This document shows positions 6,876 through 29,800 of a DNA stretch of 30,244 nucleotides, one piece after another. Both the position numbers and the translations under genes were made by a program. Each line of letters opens with the position of its first letter. Within the stretch, counting starts at the first letter, position 1. Location of the stretch: positions 1 through 30,244 of the IMG/VR virus record IMGVR_UViG_3300012953_000137; one strand, written 5' to 3'. Under the pieces are notes generated by a model. It did no database searches. It had not been told where the DNA came from and worked only from the letters and a program-made list of their open reading frames with translations. The stretch comes from a virus (Duplodnaviria > Caudoviricetes).

Positions 6876-7245
6876 TACTACTCCCAAAGACACATCGCCC
6901 ACTAAACCAGTAGAACACACTGAAGAGAAACCACAAGAGCAAGAGGGTCTTGAACCCAGTAAAGCAATGCAAGTAATGAAACCTATTTTCTGTGCAGATA
7001 TAGAAACTGTACATGAGGGACTCGAAACAAATTCAGAAGAGAAACCTCATATGATTTGGAAAGATGCAGTGAATGGTTACACTACAATGCTCTGGTTGAA
7101 TAGAGTGAAAAGGACGGTGACTGTAATGGAATATGCTGCTCCAGAGATGGGATGTTTTACAGCTGTGGGTATAGATTTACAAATCAATGATCGTAGTCAA
7201 AAAACTAAGGGTATGCCAATTTTACATCAAATGGGACTTGACTAA
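6817..7245 (+). CDS. Putative lipoprotein
   Basis: Start moved to ATG 6817 (SD GGAG); MKHLVAIMAVFLLMG-C lipobox followed by a disordered linker. Confidence 0.75.
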   Translation: MKHLVAIMAVFLLMGCQTTDTTPKDTSPTKPVEHTEEKPQEQEGLEPSKAMQVMKPIFCADIETVHEGLETNSEEKPHMIWKDAVNGYTTMLWLNRVKRTVTVMEYAAPEMGCFTAVGIDLQINDRSQKTKGMPILHQMGLD

Positions 7246-7268
7246 TAAACTAATAGATGGTATAAATA
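7238..7268 (+). promoter_or_regulatory. Overlapping sigma70-like and T4 late promoter for the tmRNA gene
   Basis: TTGACT(7238)-17 nt-TATAAA(7261); the -10 box lies within a perfect T4 late consensus TATAAATA (7261-7268). Confidence 0.8.
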
Positions 7269-7272
7269 AGAT

Positions 7273-7336
7273 ACAATTTGATGACACGAATTGAAGACTG
7301 AACTGGACGAGGGTGCAATTCCCTCCGCCTCCACCA
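7273..7336 (+). ncRNA. ssrA: Permuted tmRNA, acceptor piece (tRNA-like 3' part)
   Basis: GGAC, T-arm GAGGG-TGCAATT-CCCTC (7309-7325), acceptor strand CGCCTCC, discriminator A and encoded CCA ending at 7336; 5' end approximate. Confidence 0.93.
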
Positions 7337-7349
7337 AAAGGAGATTAGG

Positions 7350-7454
7350 ATGTTAAAATTTATCAAAAACCTTTTCACTAGAGTTAGTGGAAATTGCTTT
7401 GATGCAAACTATCGAAGGAAGTGCAATGCAGAATACGATGACCTTTGCATGTAG
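7350..7454 (+). CDS. 34-aa Cys-containing peptide inside the tmRNA intervening segment
   Basis: AAGGAG SD directly after the CCA; MLKFIKNLFTRVSGNCFDANYRRKCNAEYDDLCM*. Confidence 0.6.
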   Translation: MLKFIKNLFTRVSGNCFDANYRRKCNAEYDDLCM

Positions 7455-7474
7455 TTTCCTATTAGGGGATTCAG

Positions 7475-7591
7475 ATGAAGAACCCCTTAGTACGAGAGGT
7501 AAGTAAGTGGATGTTAAGAGCCTATATTCTTTGGAGTATTTGTGCAGACATAACCTTACTTGCAGGCATTATATACCTAGTCTTTTTTTGA
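7475..7591 (+). CDS. 38-aa membrane peptide inside the tmRNA intervening segment
   Basis: SD-like AGGGGA; MKNPLVREVSKWMLRAYILWSICADITLLAGIIYLVFF*; a single base separates its stop from tmRNA G1. Confidence 0.6.
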   Translation: MKNPLVREVSKWMLRAYILWSICADITLLAGIIYLVFF

Positions 7592-7592
7592 T

Positions 7593-7762
7593 GGGGGCGA
7601 ATTAGGATCGACAGGCAGAGATAGATGAGTCGAGAATTGTCGGATGACTGCGTTATTGGTCAATTTAGTAAATGCAAACGATAATTTTGCATCTCAAGAT
7701 TTTGCACTAGCTGCTTAATCGGATAGGGTTTCGGGGGTTTCCTAGTAACAGAATAACCCCCA
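7593..7762 (+). ncRNA. ssrA: Permuted tmRNA, coding piece; tag ANDNFASQDFALAA
   Basis: Starts GGGGGCGAA..GGATCGAC; GGGGGCG pairs with CGCCTCC (7326-7332), giving the G3.U70 Ala determinant. Tag frame 7674-7718. 3' hairpin GGGGGTT..CCTAGTAACAGAAT..AACCCCC resembles alphaproteobacterial coding pieces. Confidence 0.93.
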
Positions 7763-7764
7763 CT

Positions 7765-28536: not shown

Positions 28537-28762
28537 TGTATCATATACAGCTCACACATACCATGCCATAGTAACAGGATTTAGACTTATATGGGGAGGA
28601 ATAACCAGTATAATACACGGTATATGCCCTGTATTCTTTGATGGAAATGCACCTAGAATGATCATTGATATCTACCATGACCATCTTATATCACATAAGA
28701 ACAAGGAATACAAGGAAATGATCTCACAGGCACGTATGCGGAACAAAGTTAAAAAGGTTTAA
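28505..28762 (+). CDS. DUF6356-like small membrane-associated protein
   Basis: HL......Y..H and G....IHG..P..F motifs; family call from memory. Confidence 0.6.
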   Translation: MMIKEHLIKSNVSYTAHTYHAIVTGFRLIWGGITSIIHGICPVFFDGNAPRMIIDIYHDHLISHKNKEYKEMISQARMRNKVKKV

Positions 28763-28846
28763 ATAAACATAGAGTTGTTGTGATACAAGTCTGTAGGGTA
28801 TCGCCAGAAAATCCTCAGTATGCTCAGAATTATTTCGAAAAGGGAC

Positions 28847-28970
28847 TTGACAATGCACTCAGAATGGGGTATATTGACTATGCTGGGTTTCACCAAGTAC
28901 ATTCTATATGCAATTTAATTCAAAATAAATGAAAATAAAGCTTGACAAACCCCTCTGAGTGTCGTATACT
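28847..28970 (+). promoter_or_regulatory. Tandem sigma70-like promoters
   Basis: TTGACA(28847)-17-TATATT(28870); TTGACT(28874)-18-TACATT(28898); A-tract UP-like element then TTGACA(28942)-17-TATACT(28965). Confidence 0.8.
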
Positions 28971-28976
28971 GTGTAT

Positions 28977-29385
28977 ATGATGAGAGTTAAGGATGGTTGG
29001 TCTACAGTAAAGTTCCTCAAGAGAGGTGTAGAGGTTGCGTGTTTCTCATCAAAGTTATTCGGGAGAGGCCGAGAGAGTTCTGGAGTGCCTGTGGCACTAG
29101 GGTGTTTAGTCACCACTGTTTCTCTCTCCCCCACAACAGTAGGAGTACCATGCTCATTCATGGTTATAGGAGTGCCATGCTAATGGTTTAGAGTGACCAC
29201 AGTAGTCCACACATAAGGCGTTGAGAGCTCGCAGTGGACGGAAACCGCAAGTACCATACCATCACTATGGGAACGCTATGTGGAAGGTAGGTTGAGTGAT
29301 GGAGAGTCCCCCCGACATACAGGTGTAGGGACTCTAATTGTATCTGGAGAGCTACCCCCCCAAAAAGTAAACGGTAGGTTCCATC
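28977..29385 (+). ncRNA. Candidate large multi-domain structured RNA of unknown class
   Basis: Starts at the predicted +1 of a near-consensus promoter; GC-richer than flanks; about ten readable stems; no credible protein ORF. Confidence 0.6.
29140..29181 (+). repeat. Tandem 15-nt repeat TAGGAGTRCCATGCT, period 27
   Basis: Copies at 29140-29154 and 29167-29181, each followed by ATGGTT; partial GGAGTGCC at 29082-29089. Confidence 0.85.
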
Positions 29386-29482
29386 AATCTATAAATGCAA
29401 TAAGTATCCAATGAAATATTTCGAGTACCCCCCATACCCCATTTCTTTTTGACACTTAACTGGACTTCTAAATATACCCATA

Positions 29483-29800
29483 ATGAAATTCCTCTATATT
29501 GTTCTATTCATAACATTAGTGTCTGCATGTGCATTACCATGGCCTGTTACTGTATTGTCTACTGGTGTAGATATTATAATGAAGAAACAAACTGGTAAGA
29601 CACCCCTAGAACATGGTGCAAGTTCAATTACTGGTACTGACTGTAACTTTACGAGAGTGATAGATGGAGTATTTCCTTGCATGACTTCTGAGGAATACGT
29701 GGATTATCTCTTTGACATGGATTGTGATGAGTATACATGGGATAACATGTTACAGATACCGATATGCAAAAAAGTGCTTGACAATCCCTCTAAAGGATGA
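29483..29800 (+). CDS. Putative lipoprotein
   Basis: MKFLYIVLFITLVSA-C lipobox, TGK...H..S..TG.DC motif; CTAAATA at 29468-29474. Confidence 0.75.
   Translation: MKFLYIVLFITLVSACALPWPVTVLSTGVDIIMKKQTGKTPLEHGASSITGTDCNFTRVIDGVFPCMTSEEYVDYLFDMDCDEYTWDNMLQIPICKKVLDNPSKG

Follow-up and report, generated by a model that had tools for sequence, protein, structure and literature searches.

The described system closest in kind to the locus reported here is the tRNA cluster of phage T4 with its rnaC and rnaD where, as at loci related to ours, tRNAs lie beside small RNAs of unassigned function. In the available part of the literature (PMC9697503), RNA C and RNA D are counted among the late RNAs, again with no function assigned. 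Unlike these late RNAs, the cassette we describe has a host sigma-70-type promoter, contains no tRNA in the slot of the window (the whole 30,244-nt stretch of viral DNA analysed) and consists of units that are shuffled between phages. A further comparable system is the promoter-early stem-loop (PeSL) cassette of phages RB49 and phi1, which the accessible text portrays as a simple terminator, mostly within or over a promoter, repeated genome-wide and ending in the Shine-Dalgarno (SD) sequence and start of a gene (PMC2839356). As far as that text goes, our cassette shares with PeSL strong sigma-70-like promoters, AT-rich upstream DNA, a hypervariable region, modular shuffling and C- and G-runs near the 3′ edge; its folds, in contrast, are multi-helix, lie after the +1, are single-copy in the window and form the very cargo that is shuffled.

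RNA anti-CRISPRs (Racrs) are, in the portion of their description at hand, solitary CRISPR-repeat mimics that serve as trans decoys for a host defence complex (PMC10651486). Small phage RNAs acting as trans decoys are likewise our working model for the cassette, although its units, unlike Racrs so described, are multi-helix folds of 60-170 nt with no Rfam CRISPR-repeat match. Fremin et al. (2023) listed 8,495 structured-RNA candidates of 29-151 nt from IMG/VR (PMC10690425, available in part); units A and B of the cassette are similar in size and, like those candidates, are structured phage or prophage RNAs without assigned function, and A or B may be among the unnamed ones. In contrast to the large ornate RNAs GOLLD, ROOL and OLE, the units are separable and have no Rfam match. 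The accessible text of a pelagimyophage survey gave no match for non-coding terms (PMC7029224), and the papers listed in a search of mainly open-access literature include no description of these units. The RNA families described here are new, and their locus, the phage small-RNA cluster, is of a kind already known.

The window is a fragment of a T4-like myovirus genome, with PHROG matches to single-strand DNA-binding protein, helicase loader, tail tube, baseplate and head-closure proteins. Its gp32-type protein has its closest relative in Methylophilales phage Melnitz (65% identity). The window also encodes a permuted, alphaproteobacterial-type tmRNA (7234-7764), in two pieces with an intervening segment of ~240 nt. 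According to the available part of its description, Melnitz carries a permuted tmRNA of the same type and has OM43 as its host (PMC9004378), so the tmRNA type does not fix the host of the window phage.

Promoters, composition and homologues of the region

A preliminary description had read positions 28977-29385 as one large, multi-domain structured RNA of unrecognised class, starting at a predicted +1 behind stacked strong promoters. Both promoters hold up, each being a sigma-70-type match at 11 of 12 consensus bases (Table 1), and the ~7 nt between the second -10 box and the first helix agree with a start at the predicted +1. The complementary arms it listed are all present. From the promoter consensus we infer that expression of the RNA would be high and early. 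The stretch between the promoters (28875-28941) varies among relatives and is GC-rich in some (L003, L004); the upstream promoter may yield a further small RNA. One relative, L002, carries a glutamine riboswitch aptamer (196-247, 60.3 bits) before a small ORF inserted upstream of the cassette promoters, an insertion absent from the window.

The 409 nt of the region have the highest GC content of 597 stretches of this length (49% versus 39%). Folding energy of the entire stretch is not above that of shuffles (z -0.39; repeat -0.42), and single domains reach z -1.7 to -3.1. In keeping with the claim that no known RNA class is present, the Rfam 15 covariance models (including GOLLD, ROOL, RNase P, SRP, 6S, Y RNA, T-box and ribozymes), run in an Infernal-type check at E≤1 over the whole window and E≤10 over the region, gave nothing in the RNA except an antisense snoRNA match (E 4.8) that we judged to be chance. 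Over 32 related loci, Rfam matches were confined to a tRNA, one chance match and a glutamine riboswitch that lies beyond the cassette. Because the fold of the whole region is no better than that of shuffles and Rfam is empty, the case for a structured RNA rests on homologues.

An 18-nt pattern yielded one relative, with compensatory changes in four helices and without the duplicated stretch (Table 1). A neighbouring protein led to further relatives, which exposed a fixed frame of promoters upstream and a 19-nt motif downstream; used as a pattern, this motif retrieved 67 viral loci. A domain-C pattern retrieved 18 metagenome loci, one of which (L103) was the window's own contig and was dropped, while L097, near-identical to the window, was retained in the C-D-E alignment (A3). 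A viral pattern search with the duplicated SD/AUG unit gave 0 matches; a linker pattern gave 13, which by eye were four true and already known and nine chance. When the region was compared with 50,697 phage records by blastn, none of the 20 matches listed, out of 90, fell inside the RNA, and two related cassettes matched annotated phages through the 3′ motif alone, in Melnitz and Mosig. Unit A was not found in these two isolates or in three viral contigs.

Table 1. Features of the cassette and its flanks, in window coordinates
Feature	Coordinates	Strand	Remarks
Conserved AT-rich motif upstream of promoters	28751..28770	+	Visual inspection of L002-L006 and L008
Upstream sigma-70-type promoter match, TTGACA-17-TATATT	28847..28875	+	11/12 consensus bases; relatives have a match at the same place
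Sigma-70-type promoter match, TTGACA-17-TATACT	28942..28970	+	11/12 consensus bases; predicted cassette driver, predicted +1 near 28977
Unit A	28978..29051	+	31 copies; closing helix 28978-86/29043-51
Unit A internal loop	28987-29000	+	Large; three invariant GG doublets
Unit A inner helix	29001-05/29028-32	+	Covariation in 31 copies
Unit A A-rich bulge	29008-14	+	Within unit A
Unit A hairpin	29015-26	+	Variable length
Unit B, three-way junction	29071..29128	+	14 copies; closing helix 29071-77/29122-28
Unit B variable hairpins	29084-98, 29101-14	+	Covariation in 14 copies
Tandem duplication of SD/AUG stretch	29140..29184	+	18-nt unit, 27 nt apart (family D6); origin of two CCAT/ATGG hairpins
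Minigene	29168..29191	+	AGGAG 29168-72, ATG 29177 and 29183, stop TAG 29189-91
Domain C	29196..29258	+	Helix 29205-10/29234-39, 7-nt bulge, 3-bp helix 29218-20/29230-32, 9-nt apical loop
Linker after domain C	29240-58	+	Single-stranded, near-invariant (alignment A3)
Domain D	29259..29302	+	Helix 29259-66/29295-302, invariant inner hairpin 29267-79, purine-rich bulge
Domain E	29303..29343	+	Helix 29303-10/29328-35, conserved YGUA bulge
Tentative 3-bp helix closing D and E	29256-58/29341-43	+	88% paired; no compensatory changes
Variable spacer with C-run (G-run in many relatives)	29345..29385	+	Not a conserved RNA hairpin
Conserved 19-nt motif, 3′ edge of slot	29386..29404	+	67 viral loci; TATAAAT core 29390-96

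Comparative support for units A, B and C-D-E

Judged by its homologues, the stretch is a modular cassette of three independent conserved units (A, B, and a minigene with C-D-E), not one 410-nt fold, and the comparison supports its reading as a real, non-coding, structured and uncatalogued RNA on the + strand.

Across 31 copies of unit A, its three helices are paired in 94.7% of cells, against 63.6% when shuffled and 43-59% when slid, with both-sided changes in 14/16 pairs. Compensatory changes thereby back the TGATGAGA/TCTCATCA, TCTACA/TGTAGA and CCTC/GAGG stems of the preliminary description. No copy deviates at the three GG doublets of the 5′ loop, at two GU dinucleotides, or at two As and one U of the bulge. 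The doublets, with spacer loops of 1-3 nt, are present in all 31 aligned copies and in both copies found by the model only, a set in which no fourth GG tract is conserved. One-sided G-U changes (for example, AU 17 and GU 12 at one pair) point to an RNA from the + strand. In a held-out test, a pattern made of loop residues only found 29 loci, 12 of them on contigs new to the analysis. The unit A model scored 11 of these 12 at 54-78 bits, all 11 before a variant of the 3′ motif; the twelfth, in a coding context, scored 21 bits. Pairs were kept in 89.4% of held-out cases versus 70.4% when shuffled, in an alignment that was fitted to the model and includes the weak match. A cellular scan for unit A returned 120 loci, of which 100 were scored; the best (22.9 bits) lies antisense to a gene end and was judged to be chance. 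We also rejected an SD-decoy reading of unit A, as the spacing of the G-tracts does not fit, except in L004.

The predicted +1 coincides with the A of an ATG opening a 68-codon frame across A and B, as would be seen in a leaderless mRNA, and an ATG in this frame stands at the 5′ end of 13/31 A copies. However, the ATG is missing in 18/31, several A copies have internal stops or one-base shifts, and the frame diverges past codon 21 even in the closest relatives, so that we regard this alternative as extremely improbable. All three ORFs overlapping the region show stops and frame changes in homologues, as expected from the earlier view that they are not protein-coding, and none has a PHROG match.

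Unit B was counted from motif anchors because MAFFT misaligned it, and its figures are lowered by one mis-parsed row of 14 (L028): 82/84 cells of the closing helix are paired, and pairing reaches 98% in one hairpin (71% when shuffled) and 93% in the other (63%). The junction strands CUGGA, AG and ACUG are near-invariant. The GA-rich/CT-rich helix proposed beforehand, together with its two hairpins, is thus seen to carry compensatory changes in homologues. A model built without the window, from six copies in other phages, matches the window at 29.3 bits (E 1.8e-6, E-values being rough). Unit B also occurs nested inside itself (L074 1155-1242, - strand) and with a doubled first hairpin (L059 599-691, - strand), suggesting a small binding motif that can be multiplied.

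The 14 copies of C-D-E (29196-29343) are close kin, with a mean identity of 81% and three invariant helices. Their pairs are formed in 98.9% of cells, against 90.3% when shuffled and 29-47% when slid, and 11/34 pairs show both-sided changes, located in D, E and the inner helix of C. Such changes affect 4/8 pairs of the domain D helix, which is paired in 100% of cells, and 6/8 pairs of the domain E helix, backing the CCATCACT/AGTGATGG and AGAGTCCC/GGGACTCT helices; an inner pair of domain C is CG in 8/14 and UA in 6/14 copies. For the GTCCAC/GTGGAC element, the arms are present as claimed, but the helix is invariant in the 14 copies and covariation is confined to the inner 3-bp helix. Since neither the outer C helix nor the inner D hairpin ever varies, both count as unproven. 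Applied to 49 other loci, the C-D-E model found no additional copy.

Several proposed elements are not conserved at the 14 loci used for this check, namely the window, the near-identical L097 and 12 others. The alternative ACTGTT/AACAGT stem recurs in 0/3 other B-bearing loci. The twin CCAT/ATGG hairpins are both present only in the window and L097 (a single copy in 1/12 others, none in 11) and amount to a local duplication. The TGGA..CTACC/GGTAG..TCCA hairpin is whole in 0/11 and present as a core in 1/11 of the other loci that reach it. The minimum-energy fold, in which the unit A loop pairs with the C-D linker and two covarying helices would be broken, was rejected because its long-range helix shrinks to 4-6 bp in homologues. 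We also rejected a hammerhead ribozyme, a motif with an invariant catalytic core and three helices: the look-alike around helix C has other residues in place of G5 and G8, is not constant at the position of A13, lacks stems I and III, and has no Rfam match.

Ahead of C-D-E lies a minigene that the preliminary description had missed, with the predicted product Met-Leu-Met-Val or Met-Val. An SD, an ATG, 1-3 codons and a stop (TAG or TGA) are kept in 15/15 distinct leaders (22 loci), with the stop ending 13-17 nt before helix C; codons and stop type change, and spacing is fixed. Shuffled leaders pass the minigene test at ~0.1%, a rate to be read with the facts that the test was defined after the pattern was seen and that the leaders are related. 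Going by the footprint of a ribosome, helix C would sit immediately outside the mRNA entry channel when this stop codon occupies the A site.

The minigene raises the possibility that translation is redirected, with C-D-E trapping or modifying the terminating ribosome or holding a tRNA; the invariant UGG of unit A could, in addition, pair with the CCA end of a tRNA. Besides the fixed spacing in all 15 leaders, this reading draws on the tRNAs and T-arm RNAs that share the slot and on the tmRNA in the same genome. The domain C loop contains UGAGA, which we take to be a T-loop-like pentamer. The layout of domain C (a 5′-side bulge, a short helix and an apical loop) resembles the tRNA-elbow platform of T-box Stem I, whose distal bulge and apical loop, in the available text, form interdigitated T-loops that bind the tRNA elbow (PMC6197855). 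Unlike a T-box, however, it has no Rfam T-box match and no downstream amino-acid gene, and inspection of A3 by eye revealed neither a specifier loop nor a K-turn or antiterminator. Furthermore, no frame is open beyond the minigene stop, hence no readthrough product, and the idea fits C-D-E better than A and B. We consider it unlikely, with the proviso that it overlaps the decoy reading developed below if the ribosome is the bound partner.

Shuffling of units within the slot

The notion of a single large multi-domain RNA is not supported by comparison with relatives, where the domains are found alone, reordered or with other partners. For a census of the slot, 50 distinct loci extending 500 nt or more upstream of the motif were sorted with rough patterns; the model later recovered two A copies that these patterns had overlooked. 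The arrangements were AC in 9 loci, A in 7, ABC in 4, and B and A+T-arm in 3 each; B+tRNA, HBGT, HA, BG and H in 2 each; and BA, AB, BAT, G, GT and HT in 1 each, with none recognised in 8. The AC and ABC counts are inflated because 9/50 loci were fetched for C. Units stand first, in the middle or last in their cassettes, and tRNA-Asp or tRNA-Cys lies in or beside the slot at 7/56 loci scanned. The window, itself a genome fragment, has A, B and C-D-E once each. Wherever a locus is long enough for the order to be read, C-D-E comes after A; since it is seen only downstream of A, the two may cooperate.

A single integrated 410-nt RNA with one tertiary fold, having A, B and C-D-E as its core and optional domains, would account for the contiguity of A-B-C-D-E in 4 distinct loci and of A-C-D-E in 9, and for the one promoter, none being matched between the units in the window. 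Against this, A and B occur without C-D-E and also reversed, the chain is interrupted by the minigene, no inter-unit helix is backed by covariation, and the whole-length z is ~ -0.4. We judge such a fold to be very unlikely.

Other elements share the slot. Unit G is a stem-closed RNA with a conserved GAAUGGUC...GUGGAC core, found ~60-250 nt before the motif in L015, L047, L055, L059 and L063; it is absent from the window and has no Rfam match among the loci scanned. Unit H is larger, conserved and often first after the promoter (L018, L022, L035, L040, L066, L067, L070, L073), and is likewise absent from the window. RNAs ending in a tRNA-type T-arm (L004 1730-1760; L013, L018, L019, L030, L035, L055, L067, L074) were called by neither ARAGORN nor Rfam and are possible tRNA mimics. 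A conserved ORF of 85 residues lies among RNA units inside the slot (L049, L052, L070), its product being a candidate RNA- or DNA-binding partner.

Starts within 22 nt of a sigma-70-type -10 box are seen for 12/24 A and 7/16 B copies, whose transcripts would thus begin with the unit, and U-rich tails follow several of the units' closing helices. Both features would suit PeSL-like, cis-acting elements, that is, riboswitch-like aptamers, attenuators or 5′ stabilisers for downstream genes, tRNAs or RNAs, and true riboswitches do occur in these phages (the glutamine aptamer of L002; PMC9004378, in the text available). The downstream gene, however, is not constant: an SD-led ORF of at least 40 codons starts within 50 nt of 1/24 A copies (after 42 nt) and 3/16 B copies (small ORFs after 10-20 nt), by a filter that overlooks ORFs without a clear SD, such as one at 29483. 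In these few cases the unit is placed as a leader would be. Units are also placed last or mid-cassette, the alternative fold is not conserved, the region has no terminator-like site, and the invariant inner loops exceed what a terminator needs. On balance, a cis-acting role seems rather unlikely to us. Identity with PeSL itself was rejected on the same ORF counts and the absence of a terminator over a promoter with a gene start.

The 19-nt motif at the 3′ edge is usually preceded by a C-run or G-run and TAAAACTG. Its TATAAAT core is likely a T4-type late promoter, the same heptamer standing before virion genes (16799, 17245) and before the tmRNA (7261), and a variant of the motif occurs in the isolates Melnitz and Mosig (L089 3001-3031; L090 3001-3031). 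Conservation of the slot motif is far above that of other late-promoter sites, and the motif could serve as a special promoter or as DNA bound by a protein. Origins of T4 use promoter-derived R-loops, and the strong promoters, GC-rich tract, C- or G-run and motif conserved in 67 loci could mark an R-loop-primed replication origin or a recombination hotspot served by the folds. The one-sided G-U changes fit a + strand RNA instead, the units are wholly different between phages, and in Melnitz the motif lies directly behind the promoter, without unit A. A DNA-level function of the slot is therefore highly improbable, though the 3′ motif alone may have one.

Possible roles of the cassette

We tentatively favour a reading in which the cassette is promoter-led and swappable and its units act in trans, early in infection, as decoys for host molecules. 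It is based on the lack of a constant downstream gene, the lack of complementarity, the host-type promoter and the disposition of conserved residues: fixed loop and junction residues inside variable helices are the layout predicted for a binding site. In T4 biology, a host-type promoter implies immediate expression. Marine T4-like phages would gain, lose and reorder the units in one genomic slot, and host RNA polymerase would transcribe the cassette at once from its sigma-70-type promoters. The end-closing helices of A and B would let each persist as a small RNA of its own or, like beads on a string, within a common transcript, with the fixed loop residues forming a binding site on a helical scaffold for host proteins, ribosomes or small signalling molecules. 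A ribosome that loads on the minigene would halt where domain C directly follows its mRNA entry channel, and would either protect C-D-E or be held by it. The patchy, shuffled distribution would fit selection by host defence.

As to complementarity, neither sense nor antisense matches of the conserved segments exceed chance, be it against the remainder of the window or against the rRNAs of two alphaproteobacterial sets. We rejected rRNA mimicry or antisense action, since 12 segments against 4 rRNAs in 2 senses gave a lowest shuffle p of 0.02 in 96 tests. A host counterpart of the decoys was found in 0/151 Alphaproteobacteria genomes, a search with no positive control for a phage whose host may lie elsewhere; nor did the cellular scan for unit A, with its best score of 22.9 bits, turn one up.

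A more specific proposal makes the slot an RNA-made anti-defence or host-takeover island of interchangeable aptamers, in which the three GG tracts of unit A would form a G-vacancy quadruplex that takes up a guanine nucleotide signal (cGAMP, c-di-GMP or ppGpp) to become complete, and the minigene with C-D-E would be a trap parking terminating 70S ribosomes. In this combined form we think it quite unlikely. Should the sponge role of unit A be true, RNA sponges that capture an immune or stress messenger would have their first example.

Together, these comparisons add three RNA families, strongly supported by comparison and absent from Rfam, from widespread uncultured marine myoviruses, with at least three further unit types in the same slot. 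The units are short and their invariant residues sharply defined, making ligand screens, pull-downs and structures feasible, and the constant spacing between a start-stop minigene and a conserved fold offers a testable handle on ribosome control. If the units are decoys, phage counter-defence would include a modular RNA arsenal missed by protein-based screens. The cassette also bears on an old question, namely what the small stable RNAs of T4-type phages do.
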